Counted from the stretch's first letter, positions 12,751 through 25,648 are shown. The stretch: DNA of 64,000 bases from Escherichia virus TH47 (MT446416.1), one strand, 5' to 3'. Numbers and translations are program-made. The notes: generated by a model from the sequence alone, not told the origin.

Positions 12751-12930
12751 TTATATAGATGCGAGTGCGAGGATTTCCCTGTAGGGATTATCTTGTGTTA
12801 GTGCGTGATGAATGCAGCTATTGAGATTAATATTTTTAGTACTGTTAGTTGCTAGGTTGTAGTACTTCACGAAGGTGTCGTACATGAAACGGTCTTTAAT
12901 GCTTATGTGTTCTATATAGTATTCTTGCAT
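12751..12930 (-). CDS. small leader-family protein (59 aa)
   Basis: conserved start MQEYYIEHI at 12930. Confidence 0.5.
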   Translation of the reverse strand: MQEYYIEHISIKDRFMYDTFVKYYNLATNSTKNINLNSCIHHALTQDNPYREILALASI

Positions 12931-12995
12931 ATTATTCCTTAGATTTAGATTAGTTTTAGTACTTCTCTGTACGTGTACTTTTCGTTTTGTGCTTC

Positions 12996-13118
12996 TACTG
13001 TACATGATAGAAAGTATCGTTTTTATCTCTTTTGTTCCCGACTGTGTAGTACCTTTGGAATTGATTATAAATGTATCTATCTTTGTGCTGAAGTTTATAG
13101 ATATAGAATTCTTGCATA
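12996..13118 (-). pseudogene. truncated leader-family copy
   Basis: MQEFYIYKL... ORF of 40 codons; flanking sequence duplicates 12921-12980. Confidence 0.35.
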
Positions 13119-13125
13119 GAGTACC

Positions 13126-13311
13126 TTAGATAGAGATTAGTTTTAGTACTTCAATATATGTGCGGTACTCTGCTTTAATTAAATTTGTACACACTGTAAG
13201 GGAACTTCTTTGTATAAGTTTATTGCCGCTTTTATACGCATTTCTCCACACATAGAGATGAGATCTTTCTGGCATAGATAGTTTATTTGTATAGTACTCA
13301 AATGTATTCAT
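13126..13311 (-). CDS. small leader-family protein (61 aa)
   Basis: start MNTFEYYTNKL at 13311. Confidence 0.5.
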   Translation of the reverse strand: MNTFEYYTNKLSMPERSHLYVWRNAYKSGNKLIQRSSLTVCTNLIKAEYRTYIEVLKLISI

Positions 13312-13321
13312 AGTATTCTCT

Positions 13322-13507
13322 TTACATATCAATAAGTTTCAGTACTGCTCTGTACGTGTACTTAGTTGTTAGTGTTTCTTTTATAGCAGTACAGAAGTAA
13401 TGTTGTTTGTCTCTAGTACTGACGCGTTTGTAGTACCATACATGGGAGTTGTGGCTGTACTTGTCCCTGTCGGATAGTTTTTGGTAATAGTAGCTTTTAT
13501 GATTCAT
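13322..13507 (-). CDS. small leader-family protein (61 aa)
   Basis: MNHKSYYYQKL leader. Confidence 0.55.
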   Translation of the reverse strand: MNHKSYYYQKLSDRDKYSHNSHVWYYKRVSTRDKQHYFCTAIKETLTTKYTYRAVLKLIDM

Positions 13508-13618
13508 TGTAATGTAATTAGCCTTATTATGTTAAAGTACTCGGTCCCTGGTACACCTTGTAGAATATTATCAACTACATTTATTTGGTGCAGGATGAGT
13601 ACATTCGGTGCGGATCTT

Positions 13619-13717
13619 TTAAGGTTTTTTTAAAGTACTGAATTCTTGTTTAAGGATGTTCTGCACATCTTTAGGGAGAATATCTAAGTAGTACTGATGA
13701 ATGTTCATAGTTTTCAT
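13619..13717 (-). pseudogene. truncated leader-family copy
   Basis: MKTMNIHQYYLDILPKD... stops after 32 codons; resembles N-terminus of 13916..14128. Confidence 0.35.
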
Positions 13718-13728
13718 ATAGTACTCTT

Positions 13729-13914
13729 TTAGAACTTAAAGATGAGGTTCATGATAGATAAGTACTTAGTTTCAGGAAATTGATGTTCTATTGCATAACG
13801 TGTCGCCAGTCTGAAGTCAAATTTATAAAAGGGAGTATTCATATCCAGAGGTTCATTGGGGAATGAATCTCGGTATTGCTTGTGCAGCTTACTACAGTAG
13901 AATTCTTTATACAT
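13729..13914 (-). CDS. small leader-family protein (61 aa)
   Basis: MYKEFYCSKL leader. Confidence 0.6.
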   Translation of the reverse strand: MYKEFYCSKLHKQYRDSFPNEPLDMNTPFYKFDFRLATRYAIEHQFPETKYLSIMNLIFKF

Positions 13915-13915
13915 A

Positions 13916-14128
13916 TTAGTGCTCGATTAATAGGGTAAGGATGTAATAGTATTGCATACTTTCTACCCCTTGTAAAGCATTTCTTATTTTATTATTCCTG
14001 TACGAGTTCAAGAGTTTAGGACAATGTTTGAGGTTTATATAATTATTTTGTGTATACAGTAGGCTTTCTCGTAGACCTTTTGTTGGTAGTGCATCGATGT
14101 AGTACTGTTCAATGTTCATAGTGTTCAT
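13916..14128 (-). CDS. small leader-family protein (70 aa)
   Basis: MNTMNIEQYYIDAL leader. Confidence 0.55.
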   Translation of the reverse strand: MNTMNIEQYYIDALPTKGLRESLLYTQNNYINLKHCPKLLNSYRNNKIRNALQGVESMQYYYILTLLIEH

Positions 14129-14352
14129 AGAGCTACCAGTACTAAGATTTTTGATAATTGTTTATTGCTATCCCCGCAGATGTTGCTGTGTAAAATACTC
14201 GCGGTGAGGGTATCAAGTGCACTGTTCAGCATAAGGTTACATCCAGTACTGTTATGTGTTTTTAGCTCTATCAGCCACGAACTATCCGCGAGAAACTTCG
14301 CGTACTCTAGTTCAGTTAGAGTATTGATGTAGTACTTAAGTGTAGTTGTCAT
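14125..14352 (-). CDS. small leader-family protein (75 aa), first gene of array
   Basis: MTTTLKYYINTL; AAGGAG RBS; promoter 14378-14406. Confidence 0.6.
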   Translation of the reverse strand: MTTTLKYYINTLTELEYAKFLADSSWLIELKTHNSTGCNLMLNSALDTLTASILHSNICGDSNKQLSKILVLVAL

Positions 14353-14410: not shown

Positions 14411-14450
14411 TTTGTTTATGGGGTAAATATGATATAATGAATAAAGGAGG
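14411..14450 (+). promoter_or_regulatory. promoter/RBS cassette of RCC1-like gene 1
   Basis: TTGTTT-N16-TATAAT then AAGGAGG 5 nt before ATG; same TATAAT-AAGGAGG cassette upstream of genes 3, 4 and 6. Confidence 0.5.
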
Positions 14451-14455
14451 GAAAT

Positions 14456-15577
14456 ATGTTACCTTTTGTTAGAATGTTTGATTATGGAAATGAAGCACCT
14501 GATCCTAGTTCGGGATTTCGAATAATAAGTACAGGAGACGCATTACTATTAATTACTGAGAGTGGTGATTTGTGGGTGCGTGGTTATAACCGTTATGGCA
14601 AGTTAGGTATAGGTAATAACACCACTACCTATGTACTTGATTGGACGAAGGTTAGAAGTGATGTGAAGTTTGCGTGTGGTAGTGGATTGGTAACAGTTAT
14701 CTTTACTAAGGATAATCGTATATTGTACTGTGGTGACAAATGGTTTGAAACGGGTGGTGTTGGTAGTGCACAGATTTTCACATGGACAGATGTTACGCAC
14801 CAATTTGGGGTAGTAGATTTGAGTACAGTAAGGGATATGAAAATGTCTTATTACACGATTGGATTATTGACTACTAATAATCAATTATACGCTAAGGGAT
14901 TTGATAATAACCTATCATTTGGTGGGGTTACTAATAAGGCGACTGCTGTGTTTATTGCGAATAATGTACAAGAGTTGTATACGAGTTTAGTTAGTACTAT
15001 CTACGTTGATACAAGTGGTATATTACATCGTTGTGGCATGAGTGATAACGGTTCGTTGGGTAATAATGGTAGTTTAACTTCGTATCTAAGTTATTCACAG
15101 CCTGGTATGACGATTAAGGACATTGGAATGATGACTACGAACACTGGGTTATTATATACTGATTCTAGTGCACGCACGAGATATTTTATTGCTGGACAGA
15201 ACTTGAATAAACAGATGGGTAATGCGGCGTCTGCGAGTGCCATTACGAGTACTTACACAGAGCTTTCTGGTAGTGTTGATAAGTTTTCTTCTTTATGGGA
15301 GAATGATGGGATATTGATGACATTTGCTGTGGGTAAGAACACTAATCAGTTATTTTATGCTGGGACGAATACTTTTCATGCGAGTGGTGGTGAATCTTCA
15401 TATGCGGATACATATGAGTTAGTCCCGATGGTGTTTAATGACATACAGGAAGTGTTATGTGCACAGCGTTTATCGGTGGTACATGATTCTACGAAGTGGT
15501 ATTACTGTGGTGATGCTAATTCAATGTATGGTTTACCGGACGTAAGTACTTTTACTGAGTTACCGTTGCCCTTTTAA
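14456..15577 (+). CDS. RCC1-like repeat (beta-propeller) protein, paralog 1
   Basis: 373 aa; leader MLPFVRMFDYGN; repeated G-x-N-x-x-G-x-LG-x-G blocks. Confidence 0.7.
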   Translation: MLPFVRMFDYGNEAPDPSSGFRIISTGDALLLITESGDLWVRGYNRYGKLGIGNNTTTYVLDWTKVRSDVKFACGSGLVTVIFTKDNRILYCGDKWFETGGVGSAQIFTWTDVTHQFGVVDLSTVRDMKMSYYTIGLLTTNNQLYAKGFDNNLSFGGVTNKATAVFIANNVQELYTSLVSTIYVDTSGILHRCGMSDNGSLGNNGSLTSYLSYSQPGMTIKDIGMMTTNTGLLYTDSSARTRYFIAGQNLNKQMGNAASASAITSTYTELSGSVDKFSSLWENDGILMTFAVGKNTNQLFYAGTNTFHASGGESSYADTYELVPMVFNDIQEVLCAQRLSVVHDSTKWYYCGDANSMYGLPDVSTFTELPLPF

Positions 15578-15585
15578 TAATAGGT

Positions 15586-15616
15586 CAGTACTGAAATATG
15601 TACTGGTATTTTTTGT
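15586..15616 (+). terminator. candidate terminator
   Basis: CAGTA...TACTG hairpin followed by T-run. Confidence 0.4.
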
Positions 15617-15654
15617 AAATACTATATAATTATTTTAATTTTGGAGATTTAATC

Positions 15655-16824
15655 ATGTTACCTTTTGTTAGAATGTTTGATTATGGGAATGTAGCACCTG
15701 CACCACCGAAATTTAAAAAAATACTCACCAATAACTACAACGTTGCAGTTTTAACAAGCAGTGGGGATTTATATGTACGTGGGAATAATCAAAACGGTCA
15801 ATTGGGTTTAGGTCACAAAGAAAAAGTTACTACATGGACGTTTAGTACTTCTGGTGTTCAAGATTTTTGGTTTGGTAGTTCAACACTAGTGGTTAAAAAA
15901 ACCGATGATGAAATATGGTACAGTGGACAGTCAACCTCTGTTGGTATGCCAGGGGCATCTGTATCGGGGTGGACTTCTGCCATGCCGACATTCAATACAT
16001 TAACATTACCAATATTAGATATGGCAGTTAGTAATCAGACTACAAGTGTATTACTATCAGACCGAACAATATGGAGTACTGGGGTAGGAAGTAATGGTCA
16101 ATTGGGTAATGGAACTGCGACGAACAACATTTCAGGTAAATTCGTCAAAAGTACTGTTTCGACAGAAGAAGAACAATTACCAGTTAAATTGTTTGCCAGT
16201 AATTTAATGCATGGATATGTTACCGAGAACGGCTGGTTATACTACACTGGGCAACCCAATGCAGTTAGCACTAATGGCAGTGCGGTATATAGTGTTTATA
16301 CTAGTGCTCCTATTAGTCTAAGGAATACCATTAATATCAAGTACTATACAAATAATGGAACTTCGATGGCGATGGCTATTGGTACAGATCCAAATGGTAA
16401 GACCGTACTTGCTAATGGTGGCCCTAGGATATTTGGTGCACAGGCTGACGGAGTAAATGGTCAACTAAGTAATATTAGGCCATTTGCTGTTCAAACCGAA
16501 TCATTGATGCCTCCTGGGGATTTGGTAAGTATTGCTCATAATACTTCATATTATAACCAAGTTATTGCTACAACAGATGGTATATATTGTTGCGGCTACA
16601 ACCAATCTACACACGCTGGTATGTTAGGCATTGGTACATCTACTAACGCATTAGTATATACCAAAGCAATCGTACCTGATGGTTTTGATTATAGTAAATC
16701 GCAAATGGCAGGTGAGTATAACCGTACTTATATAACTGATGGTAATTTTGTATATAGTACAGGGACAGATGTCACATATGGTGGCATTAATAGCTTAGAA
16801 TTTGTAATAGATTCACCATTATAA
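15655..16824 (+). CDS. RCC1-like repeat protein, paralog 2
   Basis: 389 aa; MLPFVRMFDYGN; NGQLGLG / NGQLGNG motifs. Confidence 0.75.
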   Translation: MLPFVRMFDYGNVAPAPPKFKKILTNNYNVAVLTSSGDLYVRGNNQNGQLGLGHKEKVTTWTFSTSGVQDFWFGSSTLVVKKTDDEIWYSGQSTSVGMPGASVSGWTSAMPTFNTLTLPILDMAVSNQTTSVLLSDRTIWSTGVGSNGQLGNGTATNNISGKFVKSTVSTEEEQLPVKLFASNLMHGYVTENGWLYYTGQPNAVSTNGSAVYSVYTSAPISLRNTINIKYYTNNGTSMAMAIGTDPNGKTVLANGGPRIFGAQADGVNGQLSNIRPFAVQTESLMPPGDLVSIAHNTSYYNQVIATTDGIYCCGYNQSTHAGMLGIGTSTNALVYTKAIVPDGFDYSKSQMAGEYNRTYITDGNFVYSTGTDVTYGGINSLEFVIDSPL

Positions 16825-16832
16825 AAAGAAAA

Positions 16833-16862
16833 GCCAGTACTTGATACTGGCTTTTCTTTTTG
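16833..16862 (+). terminator. rho-independent terminator
   Basis: GCCAGTACTTGATACTGGC hairpin + TTTTCTTTT. Confidence 0.65.
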
Positions 16863-16897
16863 TATTAAATATAGTATAATGAATAAAGGAGGGAATT

Positions 16898-18007
16898 ATG
16901 TTACCTTTTGTTAGAATGTTTGATTACGGGAATATTGCACCTGAAGCTCCAAAGATAAAGAAAGTACTGTGCGGTCGTGATAATTTGTACGTCCTCTATG
17001 GCGATGGCTCACTTTATGGTTGTGGGGATAATGCGTATTTTCAGTTAAACGTTAAAAATGCAGCAACAAGAAATACTTGGATATTAATTTCAGAAGGTGT
17101 TACTGATGTATGGGCTGGGGCGTACAATATTCTTTATCTCAAGGGTGAAGAATTCATAATGCATGGAGTTACCACACAATTAGGCACAGGAGATACTATG
17201 ATTCCGTTGGGTGGTTTGAATGTTACTTCTTCATTTCCACATATATCTAATATTAAAATGATATCAATTGGTGCAGATACAATGCACTACGTTGATGCTA
17301 GTGGTTCGATTGTTTATGGTAGAGGCATGAATGGTAACTATTCACTCGGTGGTGGGTATTCCACGGCTCAGAGTACTTTTGTTTCAGTTATTAATACCGG
17401 AGCTAATACAGTCCTTGATATATTGGGTACACAGAATAACACATTAATATTAACATCAAATGGTGAACTTCTCGGTTGTGGGAGTAGTGGGTATGGTTCA
17501 CTTGGCGTAAGTCCAGGACAGTATACTACACTAGTAAGCAGGTTAACCAGTGTTAAACTGTTTGGTGGTAACAGTACTGGTACTCTTGCTTATTCAGCCA
17601 GCAATATATACAACGCAGGTTGGCAGTATGTTGGTCAACTTGGTAACGGTATTACAACGAACACACTACTATATCCATTTGCATTAAACTCCACTACTAT
17701 TGATAGTAAGATACATAAAATATCAAAATCAAGTACAACTTCACGTGTTAATATGTACGCAACAACCGAAGGAAAGATATATAGTACTGGTGAATTTGGT
17801 AGAAATGGTTCTGGTGGTAGTTTGAGTAGATTCACCAATACACTAACTTTAGATAATTACAACCCAGAAAAATCAGCATTATACACATGTGCAAATTTTA
17901 GTATAGTATTTGATGGTAATAATCAAATTTATGCTTGTGGTTCTTTTTTGTATGTGCCAGGTCCTATTACCACGAACTCATGGTCTGCAATTACAATGCC
18001 GAAATGA
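16898..18007 (+). CDS. RCC1-like repeat protein, paralog 3
   Basis: 369 aa; MLPFVRMFDYGN; upstream TATAAT-AAGGAGG cassette. Confidence 0.7.
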   Translation: MLPFVRMFDYGNIAPEAPKIKKVLCGRDNLYVLYGDGSLYGCGDNAYFQLNVKNAATRNTWILISEGVTDVWAGAYNILYLKGEEFIMHGVTTQLGTGDTMIPLGGLNVTSSFPHISNIKMISIGADTMHYVDASGSIVYGRGMNGNYSLGGGYSTAQSTFVSVINTGANTVLDILGTQNNTLILTSNGELLGCGSSGYGSLGVSPGQYTTLVSRLTSVKLFGGNSTGTLAYSASNIYNAGWQYVGQLGNGITTNTLLYPFALNSTTIDSKIHKISKSSTTSRVNMYATTEGKIYSTGEFGRNGSGGSLSRFTNTLTLDNYNPEKSALYTCANFSIVFDGNNQIYACGSFLYVPGPITTNSWSAITMPK

Positions 18008-18021
18008 TACTATAAAACTAT

Positions 18022-18051
18022 GCCAGTACTTGATACTGGCTTTTCTTTTTG
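18022..18051 (+). terminator. rho-independent terminator
   Basis: same GCCAGTACTTGATACTGGC hairpin + T-run. Confidence 0.65.
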
Positions 18052-18085
18052 ATTAAATATAGTATAAAGAATAAAGGAGGGAATT

Positions 18086-19243
18086 ATGTTACCTTTTGCT
18101 AGAATGGTTAAGTACGGAAATAGAGTTCCAGTACCTGTTGGGATTAAGAAGATAAACTCTGTCGGTACTAGTCAGATGATATTGACGAATACAGGCGACG
18201 TGTATGCATATGGTCAAAACACCAACTGGAGATTTGGTAGTGGTAGTTCTAGTGAGATTAGTGGGGGAGTTCCACAGATGGTAATGCAGGGTGTATCGGA
18301 TATGATATGTCATCCCAGATGTACATTATTAATAATGTCTGATGGACGTTATCTTGCTGCTGGGAACTCTACAGTACTGGGAGGTAGTTCAGGATTGAAT
18401 TATGTAGATGTTAGTTCTAAGTTCGCTACATTAGGAACTATCAAGAAAATTGATTTTACCCGAAGGAACAGTACTTCGTATACAGTATATGCATTAAACA
18501 CTGATGGTGATTTATATGGTATTGGATATGGAAACCGTGGTCAATTGGGGTTAGGTAAAAATAATAGTTTAGGTGCATTTACGAAGATAAACACCAATTG
18601 CAGGAATTTTGTAAGTTGTTCTTATGAGACGATAGTGGCTCTTAAGAATGATAATACTGCGTGGTTCTGTGGAAATTATTCGTTTATTAGTGGTAATACT
18701 GATGTTACTACATTTACTAACCTTGGTGATACTGCAATACTTAATATCTACGGTAATGGTTTAAATGGTGAGTTGTTATACACAAAAAGTGATGGTTTAT
18801 ATTTCCGTGGTTTAGCGTCGAACCGATATGGTTATTCATTCAGTTTAGAACAGCGTGCAATTAATAGCAAGATTACATTGCCGTTTGCTTATGATGTAAG
18901 TACGTTTAAGATTCTCACAGATGAACAGACAACAACCGTCAGTGTGTGGATTTCCAATTCAGACGTTCATTATGGGGTTGGTGCAAATAGCAGTAACACT
19001 AACAGAATGGGATTCACCAACCCAACTATGCCAGGTGCTGGTTCAAACTTTACATTACAGGATTTCAGTTCAGTGCAGGGCACTATTGAGACTGTTGTTA
19101 GTGCAAGTTATTATACAACTCTTATAAACTCTAATGGGAAAGTATTTGGCAGTGGGCCTTTTGATGATGATTCTTTAACTTATTTTCCTGGGAATAATCC
19201 AAAACTGATGAACTACACAGAAATTAAATTGAATATAAATTAG
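18086..19243 (+). CDS. RCC1-like repeat protein, paralog 4
   Basis: 385 aa; MLPFARMVKYGN; NRGQLGLG. Confidence 0.7.
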   Translation: MLPFARMVKYGNRVPVPVGIKKINSVGTSQMILTNTGDVYAYGQNTNWRFGSGSSSEISGGVPQMVMQGVSDMICHPRCTLLIMSDGRYLAAGNSTVLGGSSGLNYVDVSSKFATLGTIKKIDFTRRNSTSYTVYALNTDGDLYGIGYGNRGQLGLGKNNSLGAFTKINTNCRNFVSCSYETIVALKNDNTAWFCGNYSFISGNTDVTTFTNLGDTAILNIYGNGLNGELLYTKSDGLYFRGLASNRYGYSFSLEQRAINSKITLPFAYDVSTFKILTDEQTTTVSVWISNSDVHYGVGANSSNTNRMGFTNPTMPGAGSNFTLQDFSSVQGTIETVVSASYYTTLINSNGKVFGSGPFDDDSLTYFPGNNPKLMNYTEIKLNIN

Positions 19244-19255
19244 GAGAGAATAATT

Positions 19256-20416
19256 ATGTTACCTTTTGCTAGAATGGTTAAGTACGGAAACATTGCACCA
19301 TCCCCTGCTGCCATTAAAAAATTAGTTACCGGATATAACTGGGTTATGGTATTGGGTAGTAATGGTAAATTATATACCCGTGGTGCCAATTCAAGTGGTC
19401 AGTTGGGTTTAGGAGACAATACAGCCAGAACATCATGGACATTAACTGCATCGGATGTCATTGATGTATGGTGTGGTCAGTATGCCACAATGATTCACAA
19501 ATCAGATGGTACATATCAATACACAGGGAAACAATACAATGTGTGTATGGGTACATCATCTGTTAATGCATGGACTTCTATGCAAACTCTTATTAATCAA
19601 GTTAATTCTCAAGGAACAATTACAGAAATATCACTAGGAAATAACTTCATTTCAATACTTATGAGTAATGGGACCATTTGGTGTGGTGGTTATAACACAG
19701 GAGGACAGCTTGGCAATGCTTCTTATTCTAACAGTTTTACTACATTAGTAAAATCAATTATACCAAGTGGTGCGGTTCCGAAAAGGATTATTGCAGGTAT
19801 AAACATGTGTTCATTTATTGCCGAAAGTGGTAGATTATATTACACAGGTGAAGTTAATGGTGATACTAACAGTACTTCAACCGTGAGTTTTTATAATGTA
19901 TTCACATTGTCAGATAGATTACCAGCAACTGTTAGTACTATAGCATTTATAAGTACTGTTAATGATATGGTGCAAGGTATTGCAAGAAACAAAAGCACGT
20001 CAGTTGTTTCAGTGTACACAGGTGGTGATCAATTATATGGACAGGCTGCTACTGGTACTGATACTACAACAAAAATATTGACAACTGTTGTGGCAAATCA
20101 ACCACAAGGAAATATATTAGATATAGGATATGGGTACGGATATTACTCTAACTTTGTTATTACTGACACAGGTGTATACGTTGCTGGTAATAACTCAGCG
20201 ACTTCATACTATGGACAATTAAGTACAGGTTCAACTACTAACGTATTAACTTACACTAAGTCTATTACTCCTGATTTAAATTTCAATGATGTTAAAATCC
20301 AAAGTTGCTATGGTAAAACATATATGACAGATGGAAACAAAATATATTCAAGTGGTACTAACCTAGTATCTGGTGGTACTGCTAGTACTATATTTGTTGA
20401 AGATTCACCAATTTAA
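19256..20416 (+). CDS. RCC1-like repeat protein, paralog 5
   Basis: 386 aa; MLPFARMVKYGN; 12-nt spacer from paralog 4 (co-transcribed). Confidence 0.75.
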   Translation: MLPFARMVKYGNIAPSPAAIKKLVTGYNWVMVLGSNGKLYTRGANSSGQLGLGDNTARTSWTLTASDVIDVWCGQYATMIHKSDGTYQYTGKQYNVCMGTSSVNAWTSMQTLINQVNSQGTITEISLGNNFISILMSNGTIWCGGYNTGGQLGNASYSNSFTTLVKSIIPSGAVPKRIIAGINMCSFIAESGRLYYTGEVNGDTNSTSTVSFYNVFTLSDRLPATVSTIAFISTVNDMVQGIARNKSTSVVSVYTGGDQLYGQAATGTDTTTKILTTVVANQPQGNILDIGYGYGYYSNFVITDTGVYVAGNNSATSYYGQLSTGSTTNVLTYTKSITPDLNFNDVKIQSCYGKTYMTDGNKIYSSGTNLVSGGTASTIFVEDSPI

Positions 20417-20423
20417 AATAATG

Positions 20424-20452
20424 CCAGTACTCTGTACTGGTATTCTTATTTG
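20424..20452 (+). terminator. rho-independent terminator
   Basis: CCAGTACTCTGTACTGG hairpin + T-rich tract. Confidence 0.55.
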
Positions 20453-20486
20453 TATTAAATATAGTATAATGAATAAAGGAGGAATT

Positions 20487-21623
20487 ATGTTACCTTTTGC
20501 AAGAATGGTTAAGTACGGGAATATAAAAGTAAAGAGTACTATCCAAAAAGTTATCCTTGGTGGTGGTGGTCAATGTGTGGTAACATTACTCAGTGATGGT
20601 AGAGTGTATGGACGTGGTTACAACACTACACATGGGTTAGGTACTGGTACAACAACATTCGTAAGTGATTGGGTATTAATGGGCGATAATATTGTTGATA
20701 TCCATTCAAATGGTGTTCCTGGCACATTCCTTATCACCAAAGAAAATAGAATTTTGTATTCTGGTTGGGCGACACCAATCAATGGTACAACTGCACATTA
20801 TACACGTTTCACTGATTTAACATCAACTGTATTTGCTGCGGTGGATGTTAGTAATATTAAAACAATTACTGGAAATATTAATGCTACAATGGTCCTGTTG
20901 AATGATGGTTCTCTTTATGGTAGTGGTGCAAATACAGGTGTTATTGGTAATGGTAGAAATGTTGCATTATCAACACAAACATATGTAACTAATGATGTGA
21001 GAGAAGTAAAAACATATGGATCCATGACTACTATAACAAAAAATAACAATCAAATACTGGGTAGTGGTCTTTTATACCACGGCGTGAACGGTACAAATTC
21101 AATAATAAACACGTCTTCATATACATTACTGTACACATTACCGAGTTCTGATTGTTTTCAATTTGCATTTGATGAATATACATTTGGATATGTTGACCCT
21201 AGCACTAATACTTCTTATATAAGAGGTATACCAATAAATGGTTCATTGGGTAATGGTGTTACTAATAATACAGCAGTTACAACATGGGTTACTAAAGTTT
21301 GGAATACACCAATTGATAGTTCTATACCTAATAAATCACATACACTTAACCATGTCTCCTTGTTCAATGATGGAAACTTATGGACAACTGGTGCATCTAA
21401 TGTCGGTTATTCCAATGGTACAAATAGCACAACAGCTAATACTTGGACCAGTTCATCTAATTTACCATTCAACACCAATAACATCACAGACTATGCGTTG
21501 GGTAGTAATATTACTGTGGTGGTAATCGACTACAGGTCTATGTACATACTAGCTAACAACTTAATTGCTGGAACTACATCAACCACTTACAAATTTGAGC
21601 CATATAATTCTCCACCAGTTTAA
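20487..21623 (+). CDS. RCC1-like repeat protein, paralog 6
   Basis: conserved start MLPFARMVKYGN at 20487 after AAGGAGG; ORF-track extension to 20373 rejected. Confidence 0.7.
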   Translation: MLPFARMVKYGNIKVKSTIQKVILGGGGQCVVTLLSDGRVYGRGYNTTHGLGTGTTTFVSDWVLMGDNIVDIHSNGVPGTFLITKENRILYSGWATPINGTTAHYTRFTDLTSTVFAAVDVSNIKTITGNINATMVLLNDGSLYGSGANTGVIGNGRNVALSTQTYVTNDVREVKTYGSMTTITKNNNQILGSGLLYHGVNGTNSIINTSSYTLLYTLPSSDCFQFAFDEYTFGYVDPSTNTSYIRGIPINGSLGNGVTNNTAVTTWVTKVWNTPIDSSIPNKSHTLNHVSLFNDGNLWTTGASNVGYSNGTNSTTANTWTSSSNLPFNTNNITDYALGSNITVVVIDYRSMYILANNLIAGTTSTTYKFEPYNSPPV

Positions 21624-21629
21624 TATAAT

Positions 21630-21658
21630 GCCAGTACTTGAGTACTGGCTTTTCTTTT
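21630..21658. terminator. bidirectional terminator
   Basis: GCCAGTACTTGAGTACTGGC hairpin flanked by T-run, between convergent genes. Confidence 0.6.
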
Positions 21659-22307
21659 ACATATTATATAATGTGAATGCAGTCACTTTACCAGTTGTTG
21701 TTAGTTCATTATAAAGATACTCCAAGATTCTCGCACACTCTAAGTATATCTCGATATCATCATGAATAAGTGAGTACTGGAATAGCTGTTCTTCAGATAA
21801 TTTGTATTGACTCCCTCTTAATGAATTGAGAATATCTTTCACATCATCAAGTACTGGGTAAAGTACGAAATCTTCATCATATTTTGAAGCAATAAATTCA
21901 AATCCACCACCATCAGTACTAGATATACCAATCAGTACTTTATCAATCAAGTTAATGTTTATATAACGGTTGTGATTTGGGTGAATTGAAATCTCAAACA
22001 TACGAGTACTGTTACAATCAACATCAATATACAAATATACATCATTGAATTTATAAGTTAAGCAACCATACTCAATGTAATCAGAGCAAATAATTGATGA
22101 ATTTTTTCTCGTCTCTGCGTAATGCATATTGATATTCTTTTTACGCATAAGTAATTCGAACTTTGCACTAAACTTACCACCAGTAAGATAATTAGTATTA
22201 GGACGTTTGTAACTGGCAACTGGCCTATGGGATGATGAAAAGTATCTTTTTGTGAATCGTTTCTGTTTAGTGAAATATTCTTGATAGAACTTATTTCTTT
22301 TATTCAT
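21657..22307 (-). CDS. long leader-family protein (216 aa)
   Basis: start MNKRNKFYQEYF at 22307 with GAGG RBS; C-terminal domain paralogous to 12068..12739 and FQYS family. Confidence 0.6.
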   Translation of the reverse strand: MNKRNKFYQEYFTKQKRFTKRYFSSSHRPVASYKRPNTNYLTGGKFSAKFELLMRKKNINMHYAETRKNSSIICSDYIEYGCLTYKFNDVYLYIDVDCNSTRMFEISIHPNHNRYININLIDKVLIGISSTDGGGFEFIASKYDEDFVLYPVLDDVKDILNSLRGSQYKLSEEQLFQYSLIHDDIEIYLECARILEYLYNELTTTGKVTAFTLYNM

Positions 22308-22385
22308 GAGTGCCTCAATTAAATTGCTGTAAAATTGTACGTTATAAAATGAGTAAATAAAGTATAACACAAGGAGATTTTTATT

Positions 22386-23510
22386 ATGTTACCTTTCGTA
22401 TTGTTATTTGATTATGGGAACGAAAAACAAGAAAGTTCTTATGATGTTAGTGTATATGGAAACAATAACTACATTTTAAATAAACAAACTGGAAACCTTT
22501 TTGCATCTGGTGCTGCGGCATTTATGGGTGATAACACCGTTAAGTATTATATTACCCAAATCGAATCAAATGTTCATAGCTGTGAGATAGGCTTCCTATC
22601 ATCATGGATAATTAAGAAGGACAAAACTGTTTTCATTTTAGGAAACAAAAGTTCAATTGGTCTAACCGATTCGACCACATCATGGTTTGAAATTACAAAT
22701 TTATTTTCTGCTGTTCCTGAAATATGGGACAACCTATTTGAATGTAAAGTTCAATTGGGATATAACTGCATACGTGTTATGACACCACTAGGTTCAATCT
22801 ATGCGATTGGCACAAACACTTATGGTGCATTGGGTACTGGTACTACATCCTCATCAACTTCGTTCGTTAAAAGTGGTGCTGTGGATGCTGTACGCATGGA
22901 ATCAACTGAACGTTCAGTTTTCTATCAAAACAGTTCTGGAAAATGGTTTGGATGTGGTGATAACACATATGGTATACTAGGTCTAGGAACTACCGCCAGT
23001 CGTGTAAACTCATACACCGCACCAGTATGGACTAATGCAGAAGCTGTTAGCTTCTCTAACCGTGGTATCATATACAGCCTCAATGGTACTCTATACTCAT
23101 GTGGTGACAAAGTTAATGGTCAGCTAGGGGATGGATATACACAAAGCATAGACGCTGCCAGGAGCACACCATACACCATAGGAACCGCATTCCAAATTGG
23201 TAAGGCAATAACATCAGCTACACAAGCATCAGCCAACGTATTCATTGGTAAAGATAATAAGTTCTATGGTACTGGTAGTATTGCTGCTGGTATAAATGGT
23301 AGTGCTAGTGCTACATTAAGTAAAGTTACTGCGTTATCAGCATCACTACCACCTGACATTACATACAATGATATTATAACATTTAATACAGGGACCGTAA
23401 CTTTTATTCAAGCAAAAGGACAACTATATTATGTTGGTAGAAGAACTTACATAGATAATAGTTCAGACGTTACCACACAGTTCAGTTTAATTGGTGGCTT
23501 AGATAATTAA
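22386..23510 (+). CDS. RCC1-like repeat protein, paralog 7
   Basis: 374 aa; MLPFVLLFDYGN; YGALGTG / YGILGLG / NGQLGDG. Confidence 0.7.
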   Translation: MLPFVLLFDYGNEKQESSYDVSVYGNNNYILNKQTGNLFASGAAAFMGDNTVKYYITQIESNVHSCEIGFLSSWIIKKDKTVFILGNKSSIGLTDSTTSWFEITNLFSAVPEIWDNLFECKVQLGYNCIRVMTPLGSIYAIGTNTYGALGTGTTSSSTSFVKSGAVDAVRMESTERSVFYQNSSGKWFGCGDNTYGILGLGTTASRVNSYTAPVWTNAEAVSFSNRGIIYSLNGTLYSCGDKVNGQLGDGYTQSIDAARSTPYTIGTAFQIGKAITSATQASANVFIGKDNKFYGTGSIAAGINGSASATLSKVTALSASLPPDITYNDIITFNTGTVTFIQAKGQLYYVGRRTYIDNSSDVTTQFSLIGGLDN

Positions 23511-23517
23511 AATTAAT

Positions 23518-23548
23518 CCAGTACTATAATAGTACTGGATTTTTTATT
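23518..23548. terminator. bidirectional terminator
   Basis: CCAGTACTATAATAGTACTGG hairpin + T6. Confidence 0.6.
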
Positions 23549-23918
23549 ATAACATACGTTTTTTACGAATAGTATTGTGGATATTTTTTAAGTAGTTCAC
23601 ACCTTTACACAACCCATAAAATACACCAGCACATACACCAAATACAGGTATCATACATGCAAACATCGTTATCAATTCCCACATCTCCATGCCATCTTGA
23701 TTCGGTCCAAGGTCAAAGATAACAACCGAAACCAAACCTGTGATACTTAGCATATAATATGCCATGAAGATAAAAAAAGAAACAATACCAACATCAGAGC
23801 GAACTGAATTTAGCATATTATATACTGGGGTTACACAGAAGTAATACAATAACCAAACCAAAGAGCCTAAACTAAACACAATAATAGTAATGATCGAAAA
23901 TATTTCACGATAACTCAT
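23547..23918 (-). CDS. small polytopic membrane protein, family member 1
   Basis: 123 aa, 3-4 hydrophobic helices, basic C-terminal tail. Confidence 0.6.
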   Translation of the reverse strand: MSYREIFSIITIIVFSLGSLVWLLYYFCVTPVYNMLNSVRSDVGIVSFFIFMAYYMLSITGLVSVVIFDLGPNQDGMEMWELITMFACMIPVFGVCAGVFYGLCKGVNYLKNIHNTIRKKRML

Positions 23919-23919
23919 T

Positions 23920-24282
23920 TTAGTTCCTCTTACCTAAACGCTCATGGATTTCGGAAATCTTATTATACATCCACGCCATCAACTCAACGGATGCACAGAG
24001 AATAACCACACACAGTGTTAGTGAACATACCATAATACCAAATGTTATAAAATTCAAACTCGATGTTAATAATGCAACCAGCATTAGAATAAAACCAAAA
24101 TTGAATGCTGTACTCAACACAGTATATGCTGGACTATATCTCCTTTGTATTACATCATATATATTTGATAATGGTCGCTTATGGAAGTACTTCCCAATGC
24201 ACACGAATGCATTCAGTGAGAAGATAAATGTATACGCCATTACCATTAATTGACCAATAAAAGATAATTCAATATTATTCAT
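23920..24282 (-). CDS. small polytopic membrane protein, family member 2
   Basis: 120 aa; 1-nt gap to neighbour. Confidence 0.6.
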   Translation of the reverse strand: MNNIELSFIGQLMVMAYTFIFSLNAFVCIGKYFHKRPLSNIYDVIQRRYSPAYTVLSTAFNFGFILMLVALLTSSLNFITFGIMVCSLTLCVVILCASVELMAWMYNKISEIHERLGKRN

Positions 24283-24283
24283 G

Positions 24284-24655
24284 TTATCCTCGTTTGCGGT
24301 ATTTGATGCTTTGGTGCATTCTCTGAAAATGTGGAACTAATACATATTGTACGGTTTGCCAAATTACCATCAGATTATGGACAGCACCACCGAGTAGACC
24401 AAACATTAGACAGATAATTACCAGTACTGGATCACCATCTACCATACCCCATTTGAATATATGTAAAATCCATACAGTGATAAGTAGTAATAAACTAATC
24501 CAATACGTAGTAAAAAATCCCGCATGTAATTCATAATCATCAGCAATTTCATCGTATACGGTTTCCAAGAAGGATACACAGAAGAACTTGCCAATAATAA
24601 CAATTGTACTAATAAACAACATAGCAGTTAATATAATAAGTGCAATTTCCATCAC
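24284..24655 (-). CDS. small polytopic membrane protein, family member 3
   Basis: 123 aa. Confidence 0.6.
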   Translation of the reverse strand: MMEIALIILTAMLFISTIVIIGKFFCVSFLETVYDEIADDYELHAGFFTTYWISLLLLITVWILHIFKWGMVDGDPVLVIICLMFGLLGGAVHNLMVIWQTVQYVLVPHFQRMHQSIKYRKRG

Positions 24656-24966
24656 ATCCCTCGTTTACGCTTTTGATTGCGTCTAAATTCGGTTAGCCCA
24701 CGAATAATCGGTGGCATCAGACTACATAAAAAAATAACAGTTGTTGGCAATAACATGAAGTCAATCATTGCTGTATTAACAGGTGGATCACATACCAAAT
24801 AATACAAACACGTAATACTAATTATGGTTGACCCAATAAAAAGAATACAAAATTCTTTTATCTGTTTTTCAACATAATCAAACATCTTCAATACAAATAA
24901 AAATCCAACCCAACACATAATAAAATAGAATGAATACAACGTGTAAATCAATGTTACGATATCCAT
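24652..24966 (-). CDS. small polytopic membrane protein, family member 4
   Basis: 104 aa; ATGA overlap. Confidence 0.6.
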   Translation of the reverse strand: MDIVTLIYTLYSFYFIMCWVGFLFVLKMFDYVEKQIKEFCILFIGSTIISITCLYYLVCDPPVNTAMIDFMLLPTTVIFLCSLMPPIIRGLTEFRRNQKRKRGM

Positions 24967-25304
24967 TAGTACCTCGCATCAGGAACTTTAGAACGCAATT
25001 TATGAACGGCTGGGATCAACAACAAACTTACATATGCAATAGTTGAACCCCAATAGAATACTAATATAATTGGTTCACCATTAGAACGTAAACCTCTACT
25101 AATCATTGAGTAGTGAATAATAGGCATAAACATCGCCATAAAAAACCATGCGTGTAATTTTAATTGCAGCATGTTATCAGAGATGAATACTGAAATTGGT
25201 CGTTTAAAGAACCACATCAGAAAGTAGAACCCAGCACTAACAATATAGTACATAGTACTAACTTTCATATACCACGGCATTAAGTGTAAAAAATATTCCA
25301 TCAT
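24966..25304 (-). CDS. small polytopic membrane protein, family member 5
   Basis: 112 aa; W(F/Y)FK(R/K) motif after first helix. Confidence 0.6.
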   Translation of the reverse strand: MMEYFLHLMPWYMKVSTMYYIVSAGFYFLMWFFKRPISVFISDNMLQLKLHAWFFMAMFMPIIHYSMISRGLRSNGEPIILVFYWGSTIAYVSLLLIPAVHKLRSKVPDARY

Positions 25305-25648
25305 TCCTCCGGTATCTTGTTTCGAAGTTCAATCATAACACAACAAAGTTTAATGAACAAGTAAAAAACTACACATATCATACCTATGGTTCCATAAACG
25401 ACTGAAAAAGCTGGTAGTGCTTTTCCGGCGAGAACAGCCACAACACATGCTATAAATGTTGATGCAAACAATGATTGATTAATGAAAGAATTCATAAAAT
25501 CTTCACCATTACGCTTATAGAATTGTCGTTTAAAATACCATCCTAGAAACATAACTACCCAAAATGTTACATAACCTGTTAGAATAATCCCTGCAATTGA
25601 ATGTGCAACAGAACTACTCTTTAAAAACTCAAGATAAGATTCAAACAT
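25301..25648 (-). CDS. small polytopic membrane protein, family member 6
   Basis: 115 aa. Confidence 0.6.
   Translation of the reverse strand: MFESYLEFLKSSSVAHSIAGIILTGYVTFWVVMFLGWYFKRQFYKRNGEDFMNSFINQSLFASTFIACVVAVLAGKALPAFSVVYGTIGMICVVFYLFIKLCCVMIELRNKIPEE

Follow-up and report, generated by a model that had tools for sequence, protein, structure and literature searches.

Seven tandem plus-strand genes (R1–R7) at positions 14411–23548 of a 64,000-nucleotide stretch of DNA from Escherichia virus TH47 (MT446416.1), here called the window, were found to start with near-identical nucleotides that encode a leader of about 12 residues. This leader is probably a portable tag for incorporation into the virion and the junction at which the genes recombine. 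Each protein, 369–389 aa in length, would consist of two modules, the 12-residue leader and a highly diverged RCC1-type seven-bladed beta-propeller. The genome is that of a 121Q/phAPEC6-like (Asteriusvirus) jumbo coliphage, and the array belongs to the same gene family and occupies the same locus as the arrays of RCC1-like "DNA condensation protein" genes in Asteriusvirus and other Rak2-like jumbo phages (121Q_234–248, PBECO4, phAPEC6 gp001–010 and gp549–551, and GAP32 gp1). The multiplicity of these RCC1-like genes and their virion association have already been published (PMC7247149, PMC5259590). The shared leader, its occurrence on non-RCC1 bodies, and the cassette junctions are absent from the published array descriptions; no earlier description of the leader itself was found in the literature.

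All seven gene starts proposed in an earlier note on this DNA were confirmed. The array opens with a cassette at 14411–14455 that contains a -10-like TATAAT and an AAGGAGG Shine-Dalgarno sequence, with two mismatches to the consensus. R1 (14456–15577, 373 aa, 97.7% nucleotide identity to EcMJ_582 of vB_Ec-M-J) is followed by a terminator hairpin with a T-run at 15584–15607. R2 (15655–16824, 389 aa) is followed by the hairpin GCCAGTACTTGATACTGGC and a T-run at 16833–16851, which was read directly and has the same sequence as the terminator after R3. A cassette without mismatches (AAATATAGTATAATGAATAAAGGAGG, 16867–16892) precedes R3 (16898–18007, 369 aa, terminator hairpin at 18022–18040), and one with a single mismatch (18055–18080) precedes R4 (18086–19243, 385 aa). 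R5 (19256–20416, 386 aa, terminator hairpin at 20420–20444) starts only 12 nt after R4, and the two genes are therefore probably co-transcribed. The last cassette (20457–20482, no mismatches) lies upstream of R6 (20487–21623, 378 aa). The GTG at 20373, given as the start of R6 in an ORF listing, is an artefact; the Shine-Dalgarno sequence and the leader belong to the ATG at 20487. A bidirectional terminator hairpin, GCCAGTACTTGAGTACTGGC (21630–21649), separates R6 from a convergent minus-strand ORF (21657–22370, 237 aa) that matches phrog_34359 (function unknown) and is not a member of the family. This ORF splits R7 (22386–23510, 374 aa) off from R1–R6; it is syntenic in vB_Ec-M-J, and a homologue follows the last array gene in 121Q and phAPEC6. 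R7 has its own, different upstream region and is followed by a bidirectional terminator hairpin at 23515–23541. All seven genes encode RCC1-like propeller bodies.

The earlier description of a shared upstream cassette and of a hairpin after most units holds in part. With up to two mismatches, AAATATAGTATAATGAATAAAGGAGG is found upstream of R1, R3, R4, and R6 and is missing from the remaining three of the seven genes. The same first cassette opens the arrays of 121Q and vB_Ec-M-J, with different first genes behind it. The cassette may function as a promoter; a scan for sigma-70 sites gave no enrichment (40 sites versus 47 expected). In its exact form, the CCAGTACT...AGTACTGG hairpin is found downstream of R6 and R7 only. 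Behind R1, R2, R3, and R5 lie variants that have a CAGTAC/GTACTG core and a T-run, and R4 and R5 have no terminator hairpin between them.

The leader motif is approximately MLPFxR-hydrophobic-x-x-YGN, with position 8 often hydrophobic, and as a rule a short linker rich in Pro and Ala comes after it. The pattern ATGTTACCTTTTGNNAGAATG was found six times, with 0.03 occurrences expected by chance, and the seventh gene carries the variant ATGTTACCTTTCGTATTGTTA. Two types can be distinguished, MLPFVRMFDYGN in R1–R3 (with the form MLPFVLLFDYGN in R7) and MLPFARMVKYGN in R4–R6; no further ORF of the 64-kb window has a leader. In a codon alignment of the seven genes, pairwise nucleotide identity averages 83% over nucleotides 1–30, 69% over nucleotides 16–45, and 33–53% thereafter, with a mean of about 40% beyond nucleotide 45, so that the sharp drop predicted from inspection of the 5′ ends is borne out. 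The bodies share 16–35% pairwise amino acid identity.

Conservation of this kind could be devoid of meaning at the protein level, either as the footprint of recent tandem duplication or gene conversion or because translation initiation or mRNA folding requires certain nucleotides. In this genome, the first seven codons of the array genes are almost identical, synonymous sites included, gene conversion at the 5′ ends clearly takes place, and TTA, CCT, and AGA are A/T-rich codons, for which an AT-rich genome should have a preference. However, the peptide is kept across genera despite many synonymous differences. MLPFx[RI]xxxY[GA]N is retained in GAP32 gp1 and in nine CBB genes with differing codons, and among 57 distinct gene starts Pro3 is encoded by CCT in 35 and CCA in 20, Tyr10 by TAC in 33 and TAT in 24, and Gly11 by GGG in 33 and GGA in 18. 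The leader is also retained on unrelated folds, and RNA structure in the 5′ regions is no stronger than in shuffled controls (z from –0.12 to +1.44). The cross-genus sequences thus largely refute an explanation at the nucleotide level, which we regard as very unlikely. Since the peptide persists across genera with synonymous codon variation, the leader appears from these comparisons to be under selection as a peptide, in agreement with the earlier suggestion of a functional N-terminal leader.

The assignment of the bodies to the RCC1-type propellers, also made earlier, is upheld by both profiles and structure prediction. Pfam matches to RCC1, RCC1_2, and WD40_RLD were obtained, and all seven proteins match PHROG 4219 (E = 1e-41 to 1e-85). 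A body HMM had no match among the remaining ORFs of the 64-kb window; its match to all seven proteins is trivial because it was built from them. The G-x-N-x-x-GQLG-x-G repeats noted previously are less regular than described: the strict form occurs once each in R2 and R5 and is degenerate elsewhere, while R6, in which the RCC1 repeat signature is weaker than in any other paralogue, has none. The AF2 model of R5 is a confident propeller (pLDDT 88.7, pTM 0.88). A Foldseek search with this model retrieved UVR8, RCC1, HERC2, and RPGR with TM scores up to 0.80 (UVR8, E = 1e-25), and profile comparison gave E = 2e-35 to the HERC1 RLD. The body is therefore modeled as a seven-bladed RCC1/UVR8-like propeller, with confidence for R5. 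The dN/dS values of the bodies are 0.14–0.40, so the bodies are functional. The array proteins share their fold and repeat family with the RCC1, UVR8, HERC2-RLD, RPGR-RLD, and BLIP-II propellers, but the identity is only 15–22%, the repeat signatures are degenerate, and there is no Ran, nucleosome, or UV-B context. For these reasons, function cannot be transferred from RCC1/UVR8-type propellers.

The ring of RCC1-type propellers is closed by N- and C-terminal strands, and the leader lies immediately upstream of the first strand; it might thus be a structural element, such as a ring-closing "velcro" strand, that is kept for folding. We give this next to no probability. In the R5 model residues 1–10 are unstructured (pLDDT <50) and the first strand begins at residue 20, which places the leader outside the predicted folded domain. 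The other propeller strands are nowhere near as conserved, and the identical leader is found on Kelch, LamG, and glycine-rich proteins, being unstructured in the Kelch model as well.

Eukaryotic RCC1 is an exchange factor for Ran and binds nucleosomes; to our knowledge, bacteria and phages have neither. The array genes are annotated as "regulator of chromosome condensation", and the proteins could accordingly be regulators that organize the packaged genome through RCC1-like binding to DNA or chromatin. This reading is consistent with the database names and with genuine membership in the RCC1 repeat superfamily, and it has been suggested in print (PMC7247149). Yet the name is borrowed from the eukaryotic protein, the nearest structural matches include the protein-binding propellers UVR8 and the RLDs of HERC2 and RPGR, and the composition of the array proteins (pI 4.9–8.4, 10–15% charged DEKR residues) does not point to DNA binding. 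Relatives also place lectin-type LamG and Kelch modules behind the same leader at the same locus. A role in condensation is exceedingly improbable, and the label is not supported. The RCC1-type propeller is better regarded as a generic ligand-binding scaffold than as a chromatin regulator.

In a scan of IMG/VR, the leader pattern was found only in jumbo-phage contigs of 348–378 kb and in one chance ORF of 12 codons, and the leader-bearing genes encode both RCC1 and non-RCC1 bodies. Pfam matches on leader-bearing bodies include LamG (E = 2e-12) and Kelch (E = 4e-32 and 1e-26); the leader also heads further beta-rich bodies, a glycine-rich protein among them, and the metagenomes added phrog_1062, phrog_6011, phrog_4474, and a body of 205 aa that matched no family significantly. 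Non-RCC1 leader genes occur at the equivalent locus in CBB, GAP32, Serratia BF, and metagenomes. EcMJ_585 has a Kelch body behind identical leader nucleotides, and its AF2 model (pTM 0.82) has residues 1–18 with pLDDT <50. The leader is thus portable between folds. It is distributed among Rak2-like jumbo phages (Asteriusvirus, Mimasvirus, Serratia BF-like phages, Munch-like phages, and others) and is apparently absent from RaK2-type (Alcyoneusvirus) phages in pattern and tblastn searches.

Comparison with related arrays shows that recombination takes place at the leader. Relative to the other Asteriusvirus arrays, which have 13–16 genes, this one is the shortest of the comparison and mixes two leader types. 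R1, R3, R5, R6, and R7 have orthologues with 93–98% nucleotide identity in vB_Ec-M-J or 121Q, and R4 has no close orthologue among the three reference arrays. The blocks of homology between phages (14411–15692, 16886–18105, and 19232–23600) are interrupted at the leader's 3′ boundary, and the upstream block shared with 121Q stops at nucleotide 36 of R1. R3 and 121Q_236 (93.6% nucleotide identity) differ at 8 of 36 leader positions and 41 of 1074 body positions (p = 9.5e-5); the corresponding values for R5 and its vB_Ec-M-J orthologue (95% nucleotide identity), which has the leader MLPFVRLFDYGN, are 7 of 36 and 51 of 1125 (p = 1.4e-3). In both cases the upstream neighbor differs in the compared phage, whereas genes with shared neighbors have no leader divergence (0/36). 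phAPEC6 and 121Q have leaders of the VK/IK type only, whereas the FD type is found in addition on orthologous bodies of this array and vB_Ec-M-J, and phAPEC6 gp003 has the leader MLPFGRMIKYGN, unlike that of R2. Bodies that are 92–95% identical can thus bear swapped leaders, as anticipated by the earlier proposal of cassette-driven exchange.

Orthologues of the array proteins are associated with virions. Mass spectrometry of purified phAPEC6 virions detected gp003 and gp009 as well as a further six proteins of the array (PMC7247149, Table 1); R2 is the orthologue of gp003 (92% aa identity) and R3 of gp009 (94.6%). GAP32 gp1 is a virion protein, and the virion proteome of CBB contains CBB_536, 537, 548, 549, 551, 552, and 553 (PMC5259590, Table 4), which amounts to seven of the nine leader-bearing CBB genes. 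The support for each RCC1-like protein is modest (1–5 unique peptides, 3–17% coverage).

Virion association would also be expected if the leader were a capsid-targeting sequence like those of the T4 internal proteins, which would direct the proteins into the prohead, for example to an inner body, for subsequent injection as effectors or anti-defense binders. The T-even internal-protein locus is a variable, polymorphic multigene locus, and BLIP-II is an RCC1-like propeller that acts as a tight protein inhibitor, so that RCC1-like propellers are able to inhibit proteins in this way. The architecture matches: T4 IPI, IPII, IPIII, and Alt are otherwise unrelated, fast-evolving virion proteins that share a conserved N-terminal tag of about 10–12 residues (PMC3012670). 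The phAPEC6 head contains an inner body of 91 × 18 nm, for which the RCC1-like proteins were proposed by its authors (PMC7247149), and because of this structure an internal location is equally possible on the direct evidence. However, the T4 tags have no sequence similarity to the leader, and a T4-type L/I-x-E processing site is not evident, since the leader ends without a conserved Glu or other cleavage-type residue (position 9 is K, D, E, Q, or N, and the residue after Asn12 is variable). T4 internal proteins are small and charged, whereas the bodies here are beta-rich binding modules of 25–45 kDa, for which an internal location is only hypothetical; the array proteins are low in charge and rich in S/T/N/G/Q (39–47%), unlike internal proteins embedded in DNA. 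All classifiable leader-bearing bodies are lectin-like or propeller-type, as is typical of surface proteins, with no enzyme or toxin among them, and other phages keep homologous propellers in tail-fiber genes or modules. Capsid targeting is therefore a serious but unlikely alternative.

In our preferred model, the leader would act as a short linear motif through which the exchangeable modules all dock at one shared site of the virion. Modular receptor-binding proteins (T7 gp17-type fibers and the branched tailspike sets of CBA120, G7C, and RaK2-type phages) likewise combine conserved N-terminal attachment and a variable C-terminal module with recombination at the boundary. Their anchors, however, are folded, about 100 residues or longer, and part of trimeric fibers or spikes, whereas the array proteins have a 12-residue peptide on a predicted monomeric globular domain. 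Encapsulin cargo-loading peptides, which bind an HK97-fold shell, resemble the leader in principle only, as short linear peptides common to unrelated proteins; they lie at the C-terminus, attach to the inside of the shell, and have no sequence relationship to the leader.

External display of the array proteins is proposed tentatively. Several observations argue for it, including the composition described above. By analogy, a homologous RCC1 propeller lies at the end of the tail-fiber module in the Vequintavirinae (in GAP31 with a C-terminal extension of two internal repeats, read as putatively Ig-like), another lies behind a T7 tail-fiber N-terminal anchor in Pseudomonas phage PollyC, and a third is part of a "tail fiber protein" in Littlefix. 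Hair-like appendages on the head and/or tail are known for phAPEC6, 121Q, CBB, and fEgEco12 (PMC7247149, PMC7824862, PMC5259590, PMC13070987). Against the model, the array is flanked by non-structural genes in Asteriusvirus and lies outside the tail module, unlike the genes of receptor-binding proteins. External display must also postulate a separate fiber or receptor protein, because a globular propeller of 40 kDa does not by itself make a fiber.

If the model of an external docking site is adopted, this site would most likely be a capsid decoration or the "hairy" appendages of the head or tail. Along with the promoter-like/Shine-Dalgarno cassette and the terminator hairpin, the leader would provide a patch of homology for the duplication, deletion, and exchange of cassettes. 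Such exchange would explain why array sizes range from 7 to 16 genes and why leader type tracks genome and position and not the body. Of the roles suggested earlier (adhesins, injected effectors, or anti-defense proteins), adhesin-like display is favored, and the displayed modules would form a mixed coat of adhesins on the virion.

The array consists of seven tandem RCC1-like propeller genes on the plus strand, designated R1 (14456–15577, 373 aa), R2 (15655–16824, 389 aa), R3 (16898–18007, 369 aa), R4 (18086–19243, 385 aa), R5 (19256–20416, 386 aa), R6 (20487–21623, 378 aa), and R7 (22386–23510, 374 aa). A mechanical ORF call placed the start of R6 at GTG 20373 (416 aa, overlapping the end of R5). 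This start was rejected in favor of ATG 20487, because AAGGAGG precedes it and the shared N-terminus begins there. The 12 shared N-terminal residues (MLPF...YGN) are called here the leader, and everything that follows is called the body. The earlier note had claimed that the genes begin with nearly the same nucleotides and that identity drops sharply thereafter. Both statements held in a codon alignment of the seven genes, where the mean pairwise nucleotide identity was 83% for nt 1–30, 69% for nt 16–45, and 33–53% past nt 45. ATGTTACCTTTTGNNAGAATG opens every gene except R7, which opens with ATGTTACCTTTCGTATTGTTA; a pattern search would give 0.03 chance matches to the former. The leader is of two types, one reading MLPFVRMFDYGN in R1–R3 with MLPFVLLFDYGN as its variant in R7, the other reading MLPFARMVKYGN in R4–R6; peptides predicted from the leader would include MLPFAR and MVKYGNIAPEAPK. 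Past the first 12 codons, the proteins are 16–35% identical. R2 and R5 are the closest pair of bodies (35%), yet their leaders are of different types.

The upstream cassette, a promoter-like TATAAT with an AAGGAGG Shine–Dalgarno element (AAATATAGTATAATGAATAAAGGAGG), was found before R1, R3, R4, and R6 only, and is absent before R2, R5, and R7. Hairpin terminators with a T-run lie 3' of six of the seven genes. The exact hairpin sequence described earlier gave two matches, and a relaxed core pattern was needed for the remainder; the 12-nt gap between R4 and R5 has no terminator. The GQLG blocks, previously described as repeated, occur in strict form once each in R2 and R5 and are degenerate in the other paralogues. 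A sigma-70 promoter scan of 14–24 kb was not enriched (40 sites versus 47 expected). The scan misses the cassettes because they have no −35 element, and they are therefore putative promoters only. The −10 motif TATAGTATAAT was rejected as a genome-wide promoter consensus, since it gave 9 matches versus 6 expected with one mismatch allowed and was not enriched outside the array. Folding of four regions at the conserved 5' ends gave no RNA structure above shuffled controls (z −0.12 to +1.44).

The proposed RCC1-type seven-bladed propeller is supported by Pfam, PHROG, and structure prediction in agreement. WD40_RLD (PF25390) matches all seven proteins with E values of 3e-8 to 5e-25, below its curated cut-off of 150 bits. 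RCC1 (PF00415) or RCC1_2 (PF13540) exceeds the gathering threshold in R2, R3, R4, R5, and R7, and not in R1 or R6, and phrog_4219 matches all seven at full length (E 1e-41 to 2e-85). A profile of 24 paralogues matched the RLD of HERC1 in the PDB (E 2e-35) and the RLDs of RPGR and UVR8 (also ~1e-35); this profile search returned eukaryotic RCC1-family entries only and no solved phage relative. The AlphaFold2 model of R5, obtained with the paralogue alignment as input, has a pLDDT of 88.7 and a pTM of 0.88. Foldseek aligned it with UVR8 (E 1e-25, TM 0.80, rmsd 2.9 Å, 394 alignment columns) and also with RCC1 (1a12) and the RLDs of HERC2 and RPGR. R5 is confirmed by this model as a predicted seven-bladed RCC1-type propeller, and by homology R1–R4, R6, and R7 would adopt the same fold. 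The dN/dS values from orthologue comparisons are 0.14–0.40, and the bodies are thus kept by selection; the exception is R1, with 1.39 on 12 changes only.

All 36 phage records matched by the region belong to jumbo myoviruses of the 121Q/PBECO4/phAPEC6 kind from E. coli and Salmonella (Asteriusvirus and relatives). The names given to the genes there are "regulator of chromosome condensation", "DNA condensation protein", and "HERC1". The fold is that of RCC1, and a true function in chromatin regulation can nevertheless be largely excluded. Charged residues (DEKR) make up 10–15% of R1–R7 and S/T/N/G/Q 39–47%, with pI values of 4.9–8.4, and because of these values the composition does not look like that of a DNA-condensing protein. 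RCC1 proper, the Ran exchange factor, shares just 15–16% identity with the array proteins and has a basic N-terminal tail, whereas the array proteins have the hydrophobic MLPF leader instead. It is well established that the host has neither Ran nor nucleosomes. A 2026 paper keeps the name "chromosome-condensation regulators" and ranks their products with the proteins that diverge most when two phages of one species are compared (PMC13070987).

The number of tandem genes at this locus is 16 in vB_Ec-M-J, ~13 including fragments in 121Q, 13 in phAPEC6, and 7 in the window, the shortest array seen. Eleven RCC1-like proteins are encoded by phAPEC6, and eight of these were detected in its virion proteome (PMC7247149). 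The virion of GAP32 contains gp1, and multiple copies are carried by 121Q and PBECO4 (PMC5259590). Two phAPEC6 proteins detected in virions have close counterparts in the window, gp003 in R2 (92% identity) and gp009 in R3 (94.6%). Because multiplicity and virion association have been published, the array as such is not new; its RCC1 annotation is also already known.

Several other gene families were noted around the array. Just upstream (12751–14352, minus strand) there is a run of paralogous ORFs of 61–84 aa with similar C-termini (e.g., ...LKLISI, ...LKLIDM, and ...LVLVAL); two of these were scanned and gave no significant Pfam match. A similar run flanks the arrays of 121Q (121Q_249–255) and phAPEC6 (gp542c–548c). 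Just downstream (23547–25648, minus strand) are at least six small paralogous proteins of 104–123 aa, with several hydrophobic stretches that resemble membrane spans, syntenic in vB_Ec-M-J (EcMJ_564–570) and 121Q (224–232); membrane-protein runs also adjoin a cluster of leader-bearing genes in phage CBB (gp433–440). Between R6 and R7, there is a 237-aa ORF on the minus strand (21657–22370; phrog_34359, no Pfam match), and one bidirectional terminator serves both this ORF and R6. In 121Q and phAPEC6, which lack R7, the homologue of the ORF comes after the final gene of the array. The window is otherwise mostly minus-strand, and its only other long plus-strand ORF (57027–58184; at 385 aa, of propeller size) was rejected as an array relative, having no leader, body-HMM match, or Pfam match. 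No tRNA genes were found in the window by a tRNA scan.

The leader is not confined to RCC1-like bodies. EcMJ_585, the first gene of the vB_Ec-M-J array, has a Kelch body (E 1e-26) behind a leader of identical nucleotide sequence, and a glycine-rich protein (phrog_4474) is a leader-bearing member within the 121Q and phAPEC6 arrays. All nine clustered genes of CBB (gp425–431 and gp442–443) start with MLPFx[RI]xxxY[GA]N; matching of the two numbering schemes equates the Kelch genes CBB_550, 552, and 554 with gp429, 427, and 425. GAP32 gp1 and gp2 also begin with the motif, for which both CBB and GAP32 use codons other than those of the array. A scan of IMG/VR with the back-translated leader gave 24 matches, one of them a chance 12-codon ORF and 23 in jumbo-phage contigs of 348–378 kb, which represent 121Q, GAP32, CBB, Serratia BF, and two uncultured phages. 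In these contigs, the leader often heads genes that are not RCC1-like. Some bodies are LamG/concanavalin-like jellyrolls (E 2e-12) or Kelch propellers (E 4e-32) by Pfam, and a metagenome scan adds phrog_1062, phrog_6011 (named "virion structural protein"), and a body of 205 aa that matches no family significantly. The classifiable bodies include no enzymes or toxins. A tblastn search located the leader in Asteriusvirus, Mimasvirus, the Serratia BF/Erwinia pEa_SNUABM/Yersinia fHe-Yen9 group, Salmonella Munch-like phages, Klebsiella fENko-Kae01, Xanthomonas XbC2, and Erwinia Kaldavass, but not in RaK2-type phages. The leader-tagged set, as defined here, comprises at least 57 distinct gene starts from 121Q, vB_Ec-M-J, phAPEC6, GAP32, CBB, Serratia BF, and metagenomes. 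Its members have M-L-P-F-x-[RI]-hydrophobic-x-x-Y-[GA]-N right after a Shine–Dalgarno sequence, followed by a beta-rich module; all seven genes of the array have this arrangement, with R7 deviating by an L at position 6.

Across the 57 distinct gene starts, the codons are CCT (35) or CCA (20) for P3, TAC (33) or TAT (24) for Y10, and GGG (33) or GGA (18) for G11. Since the fixed residues vary freely at synonymous sites, selection acts on the leader peptide. Pure gene conversion, which would account for the near-identical 5' nucleotides in the array, is largely excluded as the source of the conservation. The leader is also, for the most part, eliminated as a velcro strand that closes the propeller. 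In the R5 model, residues 1–10 are the sole terminal segment with a pLDDT <50, strand formation begins at residue 20, and in the model of the Kelch-bodied EcMJ_585 (pTM 0.82) residues 1–18 are likewise unstructured.

The leader also provides a practical aid for annotating genes of the set that are unannotated or mis-started. In phAPEC6 (L020, MK817115), among leader starts at positions 2434, 3614, 6063, and 7325, three genes are unannotated (369, 396, and 244 aa), and the annotated start of gp002 is 108 nt too early, the leader start being 3614. The GAP32 record (JN882285) opens inside an unannotated leader-bearing LamG-like gene (positions 1–126), and the leader locus therefore spans the arbitrary genome start; GAP32_002 has the leader variant MLPFARIFRYGD. 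The Asteriusvirus-like array on metagenome contig OERM01000102.1 includes a 449-aa leader-bearing member (L026 5681) with a weak phrog_4219 match (E 4e-18) that was missed by the body HMM derived from the window, and it is a more divergent or enlarged propeller variant.

The suggestion of cassette-driven conversion or exchange was substantiated by the positions of the homology boundaries. In local blastn of the window against relatives, homology blocks start at a start codon or slightly before it and end within the leader of the next gene: 14411–15692 covers R1 and 38 nt of R2, 16886–18105 covers R3 and 20 nt of R4, and a third block spans 19232–23600. The 121Q block upstream of the array stops at nt 36 of R1. 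Where the upstream neighbor differs, the leader is far more divergent than the body, with 8/36 versus 41/1074 changes for R3 and 121Q_236 (Fisher p 9.5e-5) and 7/36 versus 51/1125 for R5 and EcMJ_573 (p 1.4e-3). For R1, R6, and R7, which share the neighbor with the compared phage, the leaders are identical. The leader type follows the genome and not the body: phAPEC6 and 121Q have the VK/IK type only, and the FD type is found on orthologous bodies in the window and vB_Ec-M-J. The genes thus exchange cassettes or evolve in concert, and crossovers fall at the leader's 3' edge. Strain-level differences between otherwise near-identical phages would be explained as cassette exchange at this site.

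Leader-bearing proteins have been found in particles in three independent proteomes (CBB, phAPEC6, and GAP32). The CBB virion proteome contains seven of the nine leader genes (CBB_536, 537, 548, 549, 551, 552, and 553) at 9.5–51% coverage (PMC5259590). We propose that the leader is a short linear motif that would dock interchangeable binding modules onto a common virion site. Alternatively, it might act like the T4 CTS and direct the proteins to the head interior, possibly the inner body of phAPEC6, from which they would be injected. Like the T4 CTS, the leader is a short conserved N-terminal tag on unrelated proteins detected in virions (proteomes in PMC7247149 and PMC5259590), but the T4 CTS terminates at a cleavage site for the prohead protease (L/I-x-E) and is cut off during maturation. 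The aligned leaders show no such site, since neither Glu nor any other residue is conserved where the leader ends or beyond, and the bodies are unlike internal proteins. We consider such a loading tag, the main rival reading, rather unlikely.

For docking, an external location on the virion is favored, at a confidence that falls just short of even, because the classifiable bodies belong to lectin-like or propeller-type adhesion modules, the composition is akin to that of fiber or adhesin proteins, homologous propellers end the tail-fiber module of Vequintavirinae, an RCC1 propeller sits behind a T7-fiber anchor in Pseudomonas phage PollyC, and the phages with large leader arrays all bear hair-like head and/or tail appendages (PMC7247149, PMC7824862, PMC5259590, PMC13070987). 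The authors of the CBB study proposed to seek the genes for the tail "hairs" among virion genes missing from GAP32, and singled out six virion proteins without a GAP32 counterpart, four of which are CBB_536, 537, 551, and 552 (PMC5259590). The array shows the logic of T7-type anchors, with a conserved N-terminal module, a variable distal binder, and recombination at the boundary. It differs from tail-fiber and receptor-binding protein systems, whose genes lie in the tail or baseplate module and whose products are fibrous or trimeric. The Asteriusvirus array is flanked by small unknown genes, membrane-protein genes, and replication or repair genes, and both models (R5 and EcMJ_585) are globular single domains.

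The Vequintavirinae tail proteins GAP31_232 (L003 6001–7704) and CR9 gp033 (L004 5968–7134) are RCC1-type propellers that close the tail-fiber module. Their N-termini, MFPIPSLFLL and MFPIPALTLT, are too slightly similar to be claimed as the same leader and are possibly a distant cognate of it. The C-terminal extension of the GAP31 protein (~170 aa, two internal repeats) is putatively Ig-like. A DUF1190 gene and membrane-protein genes lie near these propellers, as in CBB.

In the literature through mid-2026, we could not find a description of the leader or of the structural localisation of the array proteins. What appears to be new is the 12-residue leader itself, found on at least six body types, with its clade-wide spread and its role as a cassette junction. 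The finding amounts to an extension of known principles, those of capsid-targeting or anchor tags and of modular receptor-binding proteins; its functional core, the docking of binding modules onto the virion, is what we infer. The label "chromosome condensation regulators", still used in 2026, is misleading for these therapeutic-candidate jumbo coliphages, and a persistent misannotation is corrected here. The presence of one leader on many unrelated, mostly virion-proven modules makes a puzzling paralogue array testable, nominates the leader proteins as candidate specificity elements of the inner body or of hair-like appendages, could account for the hairiness, and suggests a minimal tag to load or display proteins on jumbo-phage particles. 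More tentatively, the leader could be a general plug-in display tag for one conserved receptor site on a Rak2-like hair/fiber network or capsid decoration. In that case, the coat of one virion would combine 7–16 different binding modules (RCC1, Kelch, LamG, and glycine-rich), new specificity would be gained by recombining a body behind the leader, and the FD and VK types could address two different sites. If true, this would identify the molecular basis for the specificity of the "hairy" appendages and provide a ready-made peptide tag for the display of foreign proteins on jumbo phages.
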